Shown in pieces: positions 9,501-53,785 of a stretch of DNA of 64,000 nucleotides. Within the stretch, counting starts at the first letter, position 1, and the number at the start of each line of letters is the position of its first letter. Both the position numbers and the translations under genes were made by a program. Below the pieces are notes generated by a model. The model was not told where the DNA came from and did no database searches. It saw only the letters and a program-made list of their open reading frames with translations. The stretch lies in assembly GCF_058153355.1 (NCBI RefSeq), contig NZ_CM177019.1; one strand, written 5' to 3'.

Positions 9501-9680
9501 GTAGAGGGTGACCACCTGAATGGTTGGATAGTCCACTTCCGGCAGCGCCGAAACGGGCAGGGCGCGATAACCGATAATCCCGGCGAGTAAGATCGCCACC
9601 ATCAGCAGCGTGGTGGCAACAGGACGCATAATAAACAGGCGCGACGGACCGCCTGTGCTGCTCGGGGGTAACACCTGCAT
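6558..9680 (-). CDS. mdtB: RND multidrug efflux pump subunit MdtB
   Basis: 1040-aa RND-type ORF, paralogous to the adjacent MdtC ORF (shared motifs such as IMMAFFFT and [10 protein letters not shown]). Confidence 0.94.
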
Positions 9681-10927
9681 CAGGAGCGTGCTCCTTTTTT
9701 AGCGTATTCGCGGCTGGTGGCTTTCTCTTCCGAAGTGGTGGCGCTTTGAGCTTCAACCACTTCCACTTTCGCCCCTTCGGTCAGACGATCAATGCCATCC
9801 GTCACTACGCGGTCGCCTGCAGAAATACCTGCGCGGATCACCACTTTCTGACTGTCCTGAATGCCCGGCGTCACCAGATGTTTGCTGACCTTGTTTTCGC
9901 TATTCAGCACCCAGACAAAATGGCCTTCGTTGCCCATTTGCAGGGCGGCGGTGGGGATCACCACGGCGTTTTGTTCGGTGTCGACTAACATGCGCGCGTT
10001 AACAAACTGATTGGGAAACAGCGCATCATCCTGATTATTAAAGCGTGCTTTCACTTTAATCGTACCGGTAGTGGCATCGATTTGGTTATCGAGACTTAAC
10101 AGCGTGCCTTCACTTAATTTCTTCGAGTTGGTGCGATCCCAGGCTTCAACAACCAGCGGTTTTCCGGCTTTTTGCGCCTGTACTACGGTAGTGATATCGC
10201 TTTCCGGCAGGGTAAAGAGCAAATCGATAGGATGCGTCTGGGTGATCACCACAATTCCGGTGGTATCACCACTGGAGATTTGGTTACCAACATCAACCTG
10301 CTTGAGACCAACGCGACCATCGACTGGTGCGGTGATGCGGCTCCAGTCGAGTTGCAGCTGCGCACTGGCGACGCTCGCTTCATCAGCCTTAATGGTACCT
10401 TCGGTTTCACTGACCAGCGCCTGTTGGGCATCCAATTCCTGACGGGAGACGAGATTGGTTTTTGCCAGTTGCTGATAACGCGCTAAATCACGGCGGGCGT
10501 TGGCTAGTGTGGCTTTATCTTTTGCCAGTTGCCCCTGAGCTTGTGCTAATGCAACTTTGAACTGGCTGGGGTCAATTTCTGCCAGTAAATCGCCTGCTTT
10601 GACCTGCTGACCCTCCTGGAAATGTAATGCCATCAGTTGACCATCTACGCGACTGCGCACCGTAACGGTGTTAGCAGCGGTAATCGTACCAAGCCCGGTG
10701 AGGTAACGCGGAACCGCCTGTTCCACGGCAGTTGCTGCCTGAACCGGGGCCAATGGGCCGGAACGCATACCACGGCGGCCACCGGCTGGCGACTGCTGTG
10801 CTTGCTTCGTCGCACCTGGCGCTGCGCTCTGGGATTCATTGCGGCCTTGCCAGAACCAGAAAGCGGCGATGGCGGCGATAACCACCACGATTACGATTAC
10901 CCAACGGGATTTATAACTGCCTTTCAT
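9680..10927 (-). CDS. mdtA: Membrane fusion (periplasmic adaptor) protein MdtA
   Basis: Chosen start is the internal ATG at 10925-10927, giving 415 aa beginning [26 protein letters not shown] (N-terminal membrane anchor). The 464-aa ORF-track form is an in-frame upstream extension. Coiled-coil/lipoyl region typical of HlyD-family adaptors. Confidence 0.88.
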
Positions 10928-10998: not shown

Positions 10999-11159
10999 TG
11001 GAGGAATTATGAAACACTGTCGGGAATCGTCTGAATGACGGGCACTTTTGCGAGCACGCATCCAGTAATAACACAGGAAACTATTTTATCTACGCGTTAG
11101 CGATAGACTGCATTAAGGGCAAAAGGAGGTAGGCCGACGATTTCAGCGGGACGCTGAAA

Positions 11160-11297
11160 CGGGAAAGCCCCTCCCGAGGAAGGGGCCTTAAATAAGGAAA
11201 GGGTCATGATGAAGTGGATCATCATCGTGGTGCTCTTAGTCGTTAGCTACCCAGCTTACTAAGACTACCAGGGCGGGGGAAACCCCGCTCAACCCTC
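11160..11297 (-). ncRNA. sib: Predicted Sib-type antisense RNA (antitoxin) covering ibs copy 1; ends approximate
   Basis: Minus-strand promoter-like TTGACA (plus 11328-11333), 17-nt spacer, TATTTT (plus 11305-11310); minus-strand hairpin GCCCCTTCCTCGGGAGGGGC followed by a T-rich tract near 11165-11195 as terminator; transcript fully overlaps the ibs ORF. Confidence 0.45.
11206..11262 (+). CDS. ibs: Ibs-family type I toxin, 18 aa (MMKWIIIVVLLVVSYPAY), repeat copy 1
   Basis: Short hydrophobic ORF with an MMK start and PAY C-terminus, preceded by an AAGGAAAGGG Shine-Dalgarno-like sequence; matches the Ibs toxin pattern. Too short for the ORF track. Confidence 0.75.
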   Translation: MMKWIIIVVLLVVSYPAY

Positions 11298-11487
11298 ACT
11301 CCTGAAAATATGCCTTCACGGTCAGAATGTCAATCCGCAGGCTTTGCAGTCTGCGATCCTGCCAGCAAATATTCTTTGCGAGTCGTTACGCAATAATCAC
11401 AGATGAAACTATTTTATCTAAGCGTTAGCGATAGACTGCATTCAGGGCAAAAGGAGGTAGGCCGACGATTTCAGCGGGACGCTGAAA

Positions 11488-11625
11488 CGGGAAAGCCCCT
11501 CCCGAGGAAGGGGCCTTAAATAAGGAAAGGGTCATGATGAAGATACTCATCATCGTGGTGCTCTTAGTCATTAGCTTACCGGCTTACTAAGACTACCAGG
11601 GCGGGGGAAACCCCGCTCTACCCTC
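11488..11625 (-). ncRNA. sib: Predicted Sib-type antisense RNA covering ibs copy 2; ends approximate
   Basis: Same architecture as copy 1, shifted 328 bp; -10 element is TACTTT. Confidence 0.42.
11534..11590 (+). CDS. ibs: Ibs-family type I toxin, 18 aa (MMKILIIVVLLVISLPAY), repeat copy 2
   Basis: Same features as copy 1, exactly 328 bp downstream. Confidence 0.75.
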   Translation: MMKILIIVVLLVISLPAY

Positions 11626-11815
11626 ACTCCTGAAAGTATGCCTTCACAATCAGATTGTCAATCCGCAGGCTTTGTAGTCTGCGATCCTGCCAGCAAATAT
11701 TCTTTGCGAGACGTTACGCAATAATCACATGTGAAACTATTTTATCTGCAAGTTAGCGATAGACTGCTTGCATGGCGAAAGGAGGTAGGCCGCCGATTTC
11801 AGCGGGACGCTGAAA

Positions 11816-11953
11816 CGGGAAAGCCCCTCCCGAGGAAGGGGCCTTAAATAAGGAAAGGGTCATGATGAAGCTACTCATCATCGTGGTGCTCTTAGTTATT
11901 AGCTGGCCAGCTTACTAAGACTACCAGGGCGGGGGAAACCCCGCTCTACCCTC
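11816..11953 (-). ncRNA. sib: Predicted Sib-type antisense RNA covering ibs copy 3; ends approximate
   Basis: Same architecture; TTGACA retained, -10 degenerate (TAACTT), so expression is less certain. Confidence 0.38.
11862..11918 (+). CDS. ibs: Ibs-family type I toxin, 18 aa (MMKLLIIVVLLVISWPAY), repeat copy 3
   Basis: Same features as copy 1, 656 bp downstream. Confidence 0.75.
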   Translation: MMKLLIIVVLLVISWPAY

Positions 11954-12135
11954 ACTCCTGAAGTTATGTTACTCCACCCTTATTGTCAATCTGTAAGTCC
12001 ACGTTCTTGCGGGGCGAATAGCAAAACCCTCTGCGCTTATGGGCCGAATTCTGAAAGTTGCTTTGCCTGCTCTTATTTCATTATTGCAGTCGGTATGATA
12101 CCGGACCTCAATAATTCTCTAAGAAAGGATTTCTT

Positions 12136-12795
12136 ATGAGCGAACAAATCACGTTTGCCACCAGCGATTTTGCCAGTAACCCGGAACCACGTTGCCCCTG
12201 CATTTTGCTGTTGGATGTTTCTGGTTCGATGAGTGGTAGACCTATTAATGAACTTAACGCCGGATTGGTTACCTTTCGCGATGAACTGCTTGCCGATTCG
12301 CTGGCCTTAAAAAGAGTGGAACTCGGTATTGTGACGTTCGGCCCGGTGCATGTGGAACAACCATTTACCAGCGCCGCTAATTTTTTCCCGCCCATCCTGT
12401 TTGCCCAGGGCGATACACCAATGGGGGCCGCCATTACCAAAGCCCTGAATATGGTTGAGGAGCGCAAACGTGAGTATCGCGCCAATGGTATTTCCTATTA
12501 TCGTCCGTGGATTTTCCTGATTACCGATGGCGCACCAACCGATGAGTGGCAGGCTGCTGCCAACAAGGTGTTTCAGGGGGAAGAAGATAAGAAGTTTGCC
12601 TTCTTTTCCATCGGTGTTCAGGGGGCGGATATGAAGACGCTGGCCCAAATCAGCGTTCGTCAGCCTTTGCCACTGCAGGGATTACAATTCCGTGAACTGT
12701 TTAGCTGGTTATCCAGTTCGCTGCGTTCGGTTTCCCGCTCCACGCCGGGAACGGAAGTTGTACTGGAAGCGCCAAAAGGCTGGACGTCAGTGTGA
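12136..12795 (+). CDS. yegL: von Willebrand factor A (vWA) domain protein, TerY-like
   Basis: 219-aa ORF; MIDAS motif DVSGSMSG near the N-terminus ([11 protein letters not shown]) and later ITDGAPTD, typical of vWA / TerY proteins. Confidence 0.85.
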
Positions 12796-27983: not shown

Positions 27984-28022
27984 CAGTGTGTTGGTAGCTA
28001 AAAAGCCAGGGGCGGTAGCGTG
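27984..28022 (+). promoter_or_regulatory. JUMPstart element with ops motif (GGCGGTAGCGTG) in the wza leader
   Basis: CAGTGTGTTGGTAGCTAAAAAGCCAGGGGCGGTAGCGTG, ~180 bp upstream of wza; ops sites recruit RfaH for antitermination of long polysaccharide operons. Confidence 0.78.
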
Positions 28023-42470: not shown

Positions 42471-42553
42471 GCGAAACCGCGGTGTAAATAACGACAAAAA
42501 TAAAATTGGCCGCTTCGGTCAGGGCCAACTATTGCCTGAAAAAGGGTAACGAC

Positions 42554-46949: not shown

Positions 46950-47255
46950 TCCGACAACGGTTGCCGGGTGCAGCGTAAAACGCCTTATCCGTCCTACGGT
47001 TCTGTGCTCGGGACCTGTAGGCCTGATAAGACGCGTCAGCGTCGCATCAGGCACTGAATGCCGGATGCGGCGTGAACGCCTTATCCGTCCTACGGTTCTG
47101 TGCTCGGGACCTGTAGGCCTGATAAGACGCGTCAGCGTCGCATCAGGCACTGAATGCCGGATGCGGCGTGAACGCCTTATCCGGCCTACGGTTCTGTGCT
47201 CGGGTCTTGTAGGCCTGATAAGACGCGCCAGCGTCGCATCAGGCAAAAAGCGGCA
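46950..47255. repeat. Tandem array of three ~97-bp REP/BIME units
   Basis: The block GCCGGATGCGGCGTGAACGCCTTATCCG(T/G)CCTACGGTTCTGTGCTCGGG...GTAGGCCTGATAAGACGCG(T/C)CAGCGTCGCATCAGGCA recurs three times. Confidence 0.85.
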
Positions 47256-53746: not shown

Positions 53747-53785
53747 TAGTGTACTGGTAGCTGTGGAGCCAGGGGCGGTAGCGTG
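53747..53785 (+). promoter_or_regulatory. JUMPstart element with ops motif (GGCGGTAGCGTG at 53774-53785) heading the O-antigen cluster
   Basis: TAGTGTACTGGTAGCTGTGGAGCCAGGGGCGGTAGCGTG, ~60 bp upstream of wzx; near-identical core to the copy upstream of wza. Confidence 0.78.

Follow-up and report, generated by a model that had tools for sequence, protein, structure and literature searches.

Three tandem Ibs/Sib modules of the IbsB/SibB subtype, probably all intact, between mdtA and yegL

Introduction

Published work has shown the toxicity of Ibs peptides and their repression by Sib RNAs (PMC2943612, PMC8309996, PMC4147584), with repression by Sib having been demonstrated for the K-12 pairs alone (PMC2943612). 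Membrane depolarization and growth arrest on over-production are known for IbsC and others (PMC8309996). The architecture of the antitoxin RNA has been described for SibC, and comprises a closing stem (P1), a TRD1 apex loop, a P6 hairpin, a single-stranded anti-Shine-Dalgarno (SD) segment (J1/7), and a terminator (PMC2943612). SibC is fully complementary to the toxin ORF and its ribosome-binding site, and the 5' end of the ibsC mRNA extends 18 nt past the SibC 3' end (PMC2943612).

K-12 MG1655 carries two modules between mdtA and yegL, with ibsB/sibB (b4668/b4437) proximal to mdtA and ibsA/sibA (b4667/b4436) proximal to yegL; the two copies stated for K-12 in the original prediction are confirmed by the K-12 annotation. 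Strain-to-strain variation in the number of ibs genes has already been published (PMC2887945).

Here, we describe the same locus in a 64,000-nt stretch of contig NZ_CM177019.1 (RefSeq assembly GCF_058153355.1), hereafter the window. With a probability of about 0.9, it carries three tandem and intact type I Ibs/Sib modules, all of the IbsB/SibB subtype.

Results and discussion

Tandem Repeats Finder identified a single array at positions 11066-11962 with a period of 328, 2.7 copies, 93% matches and no indels. In the three-unit alignment, the 2.7 copies of the 328-bp unit span 11066-11968 between mdtA and yegL (Table 1), and the two analyses together bear out the predicted three tandem units of ~328 bp. 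Units 1 and 2 are similar along their entire length, and unit 3 departs from both at approximately column 247, where the repeat ends and the yegL-side flank begins. A 99.5%-identical genome has mdtA (1248 bp) annotated at the same position. The locus is syntenic with K-12 ibsA/sibA and ibsB/sibB, and the modules have the same orientation relative to mdtA as K-12 ibsB/sibB.

Table 1. Features of the three-copy array and its boundaries (window coordinates)
Feature	Position	Strand	Basis
mdtA, multidrug efflux adaptor subunit, left boundary	9680..10927	-	ORF containing MKGSYKSRW...
Repeat unit 1, 328 bp	11066..11393		Tandem Repeats Finder and alignment
Repeat unit 2, 328 bp	11394..11721		~94% identity to unit 1 throughout (20 differences/328 bp)
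Repeat unit 3, partial	11722..11968		Homology ends near the sib-3 -10 element; unique flank beyond, adjoining yegL
yegL, vWA-domain protein, right boundary	12136..12795	+	ORF; annotation in K-12 and near-identical genomes
Putative ibs-1 promoter -10 (GACGAT) and mRNA start, weak, approximate	11136..11148	+	Homology with the mapped ibsC start
SD region AAGGAAAGGG of ibs-1, target of Sib TRD2	11194..11203	+	Sequence, invariant alignment columns, TRD2 mapping
ibs copy 1, 18 codons, MMKWIIIVVLLVVSYPAY	11206..11262	+	Identical to RefSeq WP_100733666.1
ibs copy 2, 18 codons, MMKILIIVVLLVISLPAY	11534..11590	+	Identical to RefSeq WP_100733667.1
ibs copy 3, 18 codons, MMKLLIIVVLLVISWPAY	11862..11918	+	Identical to RefSeq WP_100249772.1
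Predicted Sib RNA copy 1, 137 nt, 5' G at 11297, 3' end ~11161	11161..11297	-	Rfam match 11191-11333; ends from K-12 sibA-E alignment; fold z = -4.5
Predicted Sib RNA copy 2, 137 nt	11489..11625	-	Rfam, K-12 alignment, fold z = -4.9
Predicted Sib RNA copy 3, 137 nt	11817..11953	-	Rfam, K-12 alignment, fold z = -4.4
TRD1-equivalent recognition loop of Sib-1 (Sib +43..+68)	11230..11255	-	5/10 variable columns; TRD1 definition from PMC2943612
P6-loop variable block (Sib +80..+83, ibs codons 4-5)	11215..11218	-	4/10 variable columns
Predicted Sib-1 terminator hairpin GGCCCCUUCCUCGGGAGGGGCU	11164..11189	-	Fold and K-12 Sib 3'-end alignment
Predicted sib-1 promoter TTGACA-17-TATTTT	11305..11333	-	Promoter scan and alignment
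Predicted sib-2 promoter TTGACA-17-TACTTT	11633..11661	-	-10 as in K-12 sibB
Predicted sib-3 promoter TTGACA-17-TAACTT	11961..11989	-	Orthologous to the K-12 sibA promoter; yegL-side flank

Each unit contains an 18-codon hydrophobic ORF preceded by an SD sequence, with peptides exactly as originally predicted. All three are identical to RefSeq proteins named "type I toxin-antitoxin system Ibs family toxin", on which the family naming rests, and genomes encoding these proteins are 99.3-99.8% identical to the window across the locus. The peptides had been said to differ at residues 4, 5, 15, and 16; the first three positions do vary, together with residue 13, whereas at residue 16 the three all have Pro and only the codon differs. 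They are one to four substitutions away from K-12 IbsB, copy 3 differing by F15W only. K-12 IbsB, their closest relative, is itself annotated only as a "putative toxic peptide". The reported ATP-synthase target of Salmonella IbsA requires a His residue, and since the equivalent position is W, I, or L in the three peptides, the mode of toxicity of IbsB-type peptides is uncertain.

The SD region AAGGAAAGGG recurs at 11522-11531 and 11850-11859 and lies 3-12 nt 5' of each ibs ATG, within 77 bp of upstream sequence that is identical in the three copies. By comparison with ibsC, the ibs-1 mRNA would begin at about 11143-11148, and those of copies 2 and 3 at the positions 328 and 656 nt further along. 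An invariant TAGACT at 11104-11109 is a possible alternative ibs promoter, in which case transcription would start downstream of it.

On the minus strand, the Rfam SIB_RNA model (RF00113) gave three full-model matches of 136.1-139.9 bits, compared with a gathering score of 56 (E ~1e-29). Each ibs ORF and its SD lie wholly within the span of the antisense Sib, as seen for Sib copy 1, which covers the entire ibs-1 ORF and ribosome-binding site. Together with the synteny and the RefSeq peptides, the covariance model and the ORF overlap confirm the Ibs toxin/Sib antisense RNA identity proposed for the three modules. The predicted folds are much more stable than those of shuffled sequences (z = -4.4 to -4.9) and contain the closing stem, TRD1 apex loop, P6 hairpin, single-stranded anti-SD stretch, and terminator known from SibC.

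The sib promoters and terminators were placed by alignment to annotated K-12 genes and by folding. In the alignment with K-12 sibA-E, the putative promoter (TTGACA-17-TAnnTT), the +1 G, and the 3' hairpin fit the annotated ends, and the ~140-nt antisense transcripts proposed earlier fall within 1 nt of the ends derived from that annotation; an antisense promoter and a terminator hairpin opposite each ORF, also part of the original prediction, are thereby upheld. A consensus promoter scan recognized only the copy-1 sib promoter among the three, and a consensus terminator scan recognized no terminator over the region, the latter because the U-tract is weak (CUUUCCCGUUU). Despite the empty terminator scan, alignment places the hairpin GGCCCCUUCCUCGGGAGGGGCU, which recurs at 11492-11517 and 11820-11845, together with the 3' end, at the annotated 3' ends of K-12 SibA-E.

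A decay of the antisense -10 element from copy 1 to copy 3 had been proposed, and this does not hold. TATTTT of copy 1 is nearer to the consensus than the other two, but the TACTTT of copy 2 is shared with K-12 sibB, the promoter spacers also being closely alike. The TAACTT of copy 3 is one base from the TAATTT of K-12 sibA, with spacers of ATAAGGGTGGAGTAACA and CTAAGGGCGGAGTGACA, respectively. The copy 3 -10 element lies beyond the repeat, in unique flanking sequence, and TAACTT is also found in the last copy of several other strains. K-12 sibA and sibB have the same +1 G as the window copies, and their RNAs are not NAD-capped.

Copy 3 occupies the position beside yegL that is held by ibsA/sibA in K-12, whereas its transcribed body is of SibB type and differs from K-12 SibA at 37 of 137 positions. 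Overall, the three window Sibs show 5-10 differences per 137 nt from K-12 SibB, compared with 36-37 from SibA and 57-60 over the aligned RNA from SibC. The 19-residue K-12 IbsA peptide MMKHVIILVILLVISFQAY is not present in the window; IbsC likewise has 19 residues. Where K-12 has one SibB-type module, the window has three, each with its own combination of TRD1 and P6 loop.

From K-12 ibsC/sibC and relatives, we infer how the modules would be transcribed, act as toxins, and be repressed; the TRD mapping, RNase III, and depolarization data all come from ibsC/sibC and are extrapolated to the window. The plus strand of each unit would yield a weakly transcribed mRNA for the hydrophobic membrane peptide Ibs, and the minus strand a constitutive, highly structured Sib RNA of ~137 nt. 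Because Sib is a cis-antisense RNA, its complementarity to the ibs mRNA is perfect across the whole ORF, the ribosome-binding site, and a portion of the 5' UTR. Sib would meet the ibs mRNA via exposed loops, with TRD1 at the P5 apex pairing within the ORF and the single-stranded J1/7 segment (TRD2), aided by the P6 loop, pairing across the ribosome-binding site. Spreading of the pairing would block translation and lead to RNase III-dependent decay, and toxin would be produced solely when Sib drops below the ibs mRNA.

It is conceivable, though improbable, that at least one copy is an inactive relic with a non-toxic peptide or a silent Sib, copy 3 being the likeliest candidate given its TAACTT -10. 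The promoter scan scored the copy-1 promoter alone, the K-12 annotation calls IbsB-type toxicity no more than "putative", and the array is partly dispensable, as strains carry one to five copies and one strain has an IS4 insertion inside its array. However, the ORFs, SD sequences, a perfect TTGACA -35, a TAnnnT -10, and terminators are intact in all three copies, and Rfam scores are as high as functional Sibs should give. The identical 77-bp stretches preceding the ATGs and the occurrence of TAACTT in other last copies also argue against a relic, and selection would disfavor a silent Sib facing an intact toxin gene. Far less probable still is that the units are merely structural intergenic repeats, as in the old "QUAD" description, with short ORFs arising by chance. 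The ORFs are indeed just 18 codons long, under ordinary gene-calling cut-offs, and many spurious short ORFs occur in the region. Yet the ORF frame, start, stop, and SD are kept in 45/45 units from 16 strains, while longer minus-strand ORFs lack an SD and run beyond the Sib terminator; moreover, toxicity of Ibs peptides and their repression by Sib have been published for the K-12 loci. Three intact Ibs/Sib modules remain the preferred reading.

Copy number at this locus was assessed in 60 genomes drawn from 5,426 complete E. coli genomes. Three copies were found in ~42% and two in 45%, with the remainder having one, four, or five. The proposal that three copies represent a local expansion is hence valid relative to K-12, but not across E. 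coli, where two and three copies are the most frequent states. Arrays of three to five copies with the same locus, 328-bp unit, and cassette types occur in E. coli O157:H7, O111:H8, strain 219, and FDAARGOS_1268. Most other three-copy arrays consist of two IbsB-type modules and ibsA, whereas the window has three IbsB-type modules and no ibsA; ibsA is also missing at this locus from about one-fifth of the E. coli genomes sampled. Copies 1 and 2 encode peptides in which cassettes known from elsewhere are combined in a rare way. Judged from collinear full-length matches, essentially the same three-copy array is present in eight or nine of the 5,426 complete genomes, at 97.7-99.8% identity; strains 2020CK-00188 and MFDS1022581 are examples of carriers.

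The family, mechanism, locus, tandem duplication, and variable copy number have all been described, and RefSeq already has these three genes annotated; the element is thus already known and is not of a new kind. Its value lies in the annotation of 18-codon genes and antisense RNAs that fall below the usual ORF cut-offs, and in the combination of a shared TRD2 with diversified TRD1 and P6 loops, a handy natural substrate for studying the ways in which cross-talk between cis-antisense paralogues is avoided or tolerated.

Among the three Sib regions, 10 columns are variable, and nine of these are in TRD1 or the P6 loop. The three copies would have originated by tandem duplication and short-tract gene conversion, with divergence almost confined to these two blocks. 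The variable TRD1 expected from the model of Han et al. (2010) was found, with four differences per copy pair over 23 nt, and non-cognate TRD1 duplexes are predicted to be 10-15 kcal/mol weaker. The variable TRD2 of the same model was not, as there are 0 differences among the three copies compared with 3-10 between K-12 paralogues; the region differs by one base from that of K-12 SibB. In fact, no difference separates the three copies over the last 54 nt of Sib, starting at +84. The suggestion that the copies are non-cross-reactive accordingly finds no support in the sequence, given that one of two independent recognition domains is the same throughout, and full insulation of the three pairs cannot be assumed.

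Cross-repression is plausible given this TRD2 identity. The three modules may act as one pool in which any Sib silences any ibs and extra copies mainly raise antitoxin and toxin dosage, a view to which we assign slightly less than even odds and which would refine the three-module reading while leaving the family assignment unaffected. Beyond the shared 3' portion, the predicted TRD2 duplex has an energy of -31.5 kcal/mol in 9/9 Sib x ibs combinations. Han et al. reported that TRD1 and TRD2 act independently, a swap of either alone retargeting SibC to ibsD, and that ~25 bp of uninterrupted helix are sufficient (PMC2943612); K-12 ibsA is also known to be repressed by non-cognate Sibs (PMC2943612). 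Conversely, SibC TRD2 also requires P6-loop sequence (PMC2943612), and the P6 loop next to TRD2 varies by 1-4 nt between the window copies, with a single-nucleotide difference between copies 2 and 3. SibA and SibE have a common TRD2 region, yet SibA was reported not to repress ibsE (PMC2943612). Furthermore, within 16 sampled arrays no two copies have the same P6-loop codons, one exact duplicate excepted, which looks like selection for distinct cassettes.

Variation in 18 distinct IbsB-type units from the 16 strains is concentrated in the same TRD1 and P6 blocks. All four synonymous variable third positions in these units fall within codons 12-17 (P ~0.008), a clustering that points to selection at the RNA level. 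A tentative extension, which we regard as possible but rather unlikely, is that IbsB/SibB cassettes form a combinatorial specificity system, in which the P6 loop (codons 4-5) and TRD1 (codons 12-17) are reshuffled between copies and strains by short-tract gene conversion while TRD2 stays fixed. Selection on RNA-RNA recognition, suggested by the clustering of synonymous changes in TRD1, would keep the copies distinct. No description of such a population-level cassette mosaic was found in the ibs/sib literature searched. If true, the window array would offer a natural way to learn whether TRD1 together with the P6 loop suffices for orthogonality or whether the copies cross-repress in part.

Minus-strand ORFs of 42-48 aa were also observed within the Sib regions. 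A coding role was rejected for these, as they have no SD, extend past the Sib terminator, and begin in the P6 hairpin, within its AUGAUGA arm; the AUGAUGA/UCAUCAU hairpin gives rise to them as a by-product.

Array architecture and identification of three ibs/sib modules

The 1.2-kb intergenic region between mdtA and yegL carries one tandem array with a period of 328 bp (2.7 copies, 93% matches, and 0 indels by Tandem Repeats Finder). Units 1 and 2, numbered from the mdtA side, differ at 20 of 328 positions, and unit 3 follows them to approximately column 247 before passing into unique flank adjoining yegL. Each unit holds one 18-codon ORF preceded by AAGGAAAGGG, and the translated peptides are exactly those of the original prediction. 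Differences among the peptides had been placed at residues 4-5 and 15-16; those at 4, 5, and 15 hold, but residue 16 is invariably proline, its codon change being synonymous, and residue 13 also varies.

Searched with all Rfam families, the region gave three full-length minus-strand matches to SIB_RNA (RF00113) scoring 136.1-139.9 bits (E ~1e-29; gathering score, 56), and the Rfam scan of the 64-kb window found no Sib match beyond these. Because the Rfam model begins at the -35 hexamer, the RNA ends were taken from an alignment of the copies with the five sib genes (sibA-E) annotated in K-12. On this basis, the 5' ends fall at the G of GAGGGU and the 3' ends past the hairpin GGCCCCUUCCUCGGGAGGGGCUUUCCC, thus giving RNAs of 137 nt each, and the antisense transcripts were originally predicted to within at most one base of these ends. 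The predicted folds (-59 to -62 kcal/mol, z = -4.4 to -4.9) are far stabler than shuffled controls and comprise a closing stem, a GC hairpin, a long hairpin with TRD1 at its apex, the P6 hairpin (AUGAUGA/UCAUCAU), a terminator hairpin, and an unpaired UCCUUAUUUAA stretch complementary to the ribosome-binding site.

Minus-strand ORFs of 42-48 codons lie within and beyond each Sib RNA. They were rejected as genes, as they lack a Shine-Dalgarno sequence, extend beyond the Sib terminator, and start in the AUGAUGA arm of P6; we judge them to be by-products of the antisense arrangement.

Coordinates of features in the window
Feature	Coordinates	Strand	Remark
mdtA	9680-10927	minus	left boundary of intergenic region
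Tandem array	11066-11962
ibs-1 -10, putative	11136-11141		GACGAT; placed only by homology with mapped ibsC start
ibs-1 mRNA start, putative	~11143-11148		placed only by homology with mapped ibsC start
ibs copy 1, 18 codons	11206-11262	plus	MMKWIIIVVLLVVSYPAY; WP_100733666.1
ibs copy 2, 18 codons	11534-11590	plus	MMKILIIVVLLVISLPAY; WP_100733667.1
ibs copy 3, 18 codons	11862-11918	plus	MMKLLIIVVLLVISWPAY; WP_100249772.1
ibs-1 codon 4	11215-11217	plus	equivalent to Salmonella IbsA His
P6-loop variable block, copy 1	11215-11218		Sib +80 to +83; ibs codons 4-5
TRD1 variable block	11241-11253
Sib-1 RNA	~11161-11297	minus
Sib-2 RNA	~11489-11625	minus
Sib-3 RNA	~11817-11953	minus
SIB_RNA match, copy 1	11191-11333	minus	RF00113
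SIB_RNA match, copy 2	11519-11661	minus	RF00113
SIB_RNA match, copy 3	11847-11989	minus	RF00113
sib-1 promoter	11305-11333	minus	TTGACA-17-TATTTT
42-48-codon ORFs	11097-11225, 11425-11571, 11753-11881	minus	not regarded as genes
yegL	12136-12795	plus	right boundary of intergenic region
JUMPstart	27984-28022, 53747-53785	plus	RF01707; ~54 bits each
algC RNA motif	42500-42549	plus	76.6 bits; gathering score, 33.8
naRNA4	47020-47090, 47116-47186	minus	72.9 and 79.7 bits

Relationship to the K-12 modules

The K-12 MG1655 annotation places two modules in this intergenic region, as originally stated: ibsB/sibB on the mdtA side and ibsA/sibA on the yegL side. All three window Sibs are SibB-type by sequence, differing from K-12 SibB at 5-10 of 137 aligned positions, compared with 36-37 for SibA and 39-60 for SibC, D, and E. 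The window peptides carry 1-4 residue differences from K-12 IbsB (MMKLLIIVVLLVISFPAY), and the 19-residue IbsA is absent. Copy 3 holds the position of ibsA/sibA, but its transcribed body is SibB-type. All three Sibs start with a 5' G, like K-12 SibA and SibB, which are without an NAD cap, whereas SibC, D, and E are NAD-capped (PMC12956327).

In the closest RefSeq genomes (99.3-99.8% identity over the intergenic region), the three ORFs are named “type I toxin-antitoxin system Ibs family toxin”. The SIB_RNA matches, K-12 synteny, and RefSeq names confirm the three modules, and the original interpretation is correct in its core. This is a known family at a known locus, with a copy number common in E. 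coli and with the exact genes annotated in public genomes.

Copy number across E. coli

A match to the region was present in all but four of 5,426 complete E. coli genomes. For 60 records taken at even steps down the match ranking, copies were counted in the RefSeq annotation of the matched stretch; these counts are approximate since a few matches spanned only part of the array. Three copies occur in about 25 records plus the top hit; the 25, among them O157:H7, O111:H8, and BL21, have ibsA and two IbsB-type copies; in the top hit, all three are IbsB-type and ibsA is absent. Two copies occur in about 27 (17 with ibsA as in K-12, and 10 without it, including O25b:H4-typed strains), four or five in about 4, and one in about 3. 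Arrays of 1, 2, 3, 4, and 5 copies were confirmed in individually fetched loci.

Published counts agree that ibs number is variable: there are five ibs/sib copies in K-12 MG1655 (PMC4147584), and six Ibs genes in O157:H7 EDL933, seven in Sakai, S. boydii, S. sonnei, and E. fergusonii, four in S. flexneri, and three in S. dysenteriae, with lineage-specific duplications described (Fozo et al. 2010, PMC2887945). The three-copy state, proposed to be a local expansion, is thus an expansion relative to K-12 only. The uncommon feature is an array whose three copies are all IbsB-type, with no ibsA: collinear full-length matches of at least 97.7% identity came from only nine of the 5,426 genomes, and the next-best matches were two-copy arrays at ~94%.

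Single loci also showed an IS4 insertion cutting the array after the first copy (N4220121), a five-copy array with two identical adjacent units (FDAARGOS_1268), and, in the divergent genome of MEI4BO-21, a single 19-residue Ibs (MMRLVIILVILLVISLPAY) adjoining yegD with yegL missing.

Recognition domains and cross-repression

Two domains of SibC recognize ibsC independently of each other. TRD1 (+46 to +68) forms an apex loop and pairs within the ORF. TRD2 (+99 to +115), the single-stranded J1/7, base-pairs across the translation initiation region, for which the P1 stem and P6-loop sequence are required as well. Exchange of either TRD retargets SibC to ibsD (Han et al., PMC2943612). When these domains were mapped onto the three 137-nt window Sibs, five of the 10 variable columns fell in the TRD1 region (Sib +45 to +57), four in the P6-loop block, and one at +7. 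The 54 nt from +84 to the 3' end, TRD2 included, are identical in all copies, whereas the K-12 paralogues differ at 3-10 TRD2 positions.

Predicted TRD1 duplexes are 10-15 kcal/mol weaker for non-cognate than for cognate pairs, and TRD2 pairing is -31.5 kcal/mol in all nine Sib x ibs combinations. With TRD2 identical and its duplex energies equal, the suggestion that the copies are non-cross-reactive is unsupported by sequence; by the rules of Han et al., TRD2 could plausibly mediate cross-repression, which we put at about even odds. Discrimination might be regained through the P6 loop, in which copies 2 and 3 differ by a single base and copy 1 by four.

Mosaic variation of IbsB-type units

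Sixteen loci supplied 37 IbsB-type units with 18 distinct sequences. These vary only in the P6 and TRD1 blocks, which reassort independently. Codons 4-5 read WI, IL, LL, or IF, and codons 13-16 read VSYP, ISLP, ISWP, ISFP, or ISYP. Window copy 1 (WI+VSYP) and copy 1 of strain 219 (IL+VSYP) are identical upstream and in TRD1 and differ in the P6 codons; O25b:H4 and APEC 789 have two cassettes in common in reversed order. At the 16 loci, P6 codons are never common to two copies of one array, bar one exactly duplicated unit in the strain with five copies. Third positions that vary synonymously number four, all within codons 12-17, the TRD1 block (P ~0.008 by a simple hypergeometric count over sites that are not independent). 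This pattern fits short-tract gene conversion combined with selection on RNA-RNA recognition, which we offer as a lead rather than a demonstrated process. It extends a comment by Han et al. (PMC2943612) that variable regions harbor the TRDs, and the identical TRD2 combined with reshuffled TRD1 and P6 cassettes may be of specialist interest.

Promoters

The antisense -10 element had been thought to decay from copy 1 to copy 3. However, sib-2 (TTGACA-17-TACTTT) shares its -10 with K-12 sibB, which is annotated as a small RNA, and internal units in all strains examined have this -10 as standard. Copy 3 (TTGACA-17-TAACTT) uses the flank promoter orthologous to that of K-12 sibA, with 14 of 17 spacer positions matching and a -10 one base from TAATTT; TAACTT is also found in the last unit of APEC 789, R32_14_1F, and MFDS1022581. 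The copy 1 -10 is a derived variant nearer to consensus. The differences reflect array position, internal repeat promoter versus flank promoter, and not progressive decay.

The sib-1 promoter (spacer TTCTGACCGTGAAGGCA) is unlike the unit-1 promoter of MFDS1022581, an otherwise 99.5%-identical strain in which the unit-1 and unit-2 promoters are the same. This suggests a recent short gene conversion between neighboring units. The ibs promoters are weak.

Mechanism and toxin target

We infer expression, toxicity, and repression of the window modules from work on homologous modules of K-12. Each Sib RNA would be made constitutively and would pair via exposed loops with the much scarcer ibs mRNA; the duplex would then spread across the ribosome-binding site and ORF, blocking ibs translation, with RNase III-dependent decay to follow (PMC2943612, PMC4147584). 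When overproduced, IbsC is lethal and depolarizes the inner membrane within minutes (PMC8309996). A 2025 preprint describes inhibition of the Fo part of ATP synthase by Salmonella IbsA via a His needed for binding subunit b (10.1101/2025.05.26.656083). The equivalent residue 4, H in IbsA, is W, I, or L in the window peptides, so this target might not apply to them, and IbsB-type peptides may act differently from Salmonella IbsA.

Other Rfam matches in the window

Two adjacent matches to naRNA4 (nucleoid-associated ncRNA 4, CssrE) and one to the algC RNA cis-regulatory motif were also found, as were two JUMPstart elements. Such elements precede polysaccharide gene clusters; judged from these two matches, two clusters of this kind probably lie in the window downstream of yegL.
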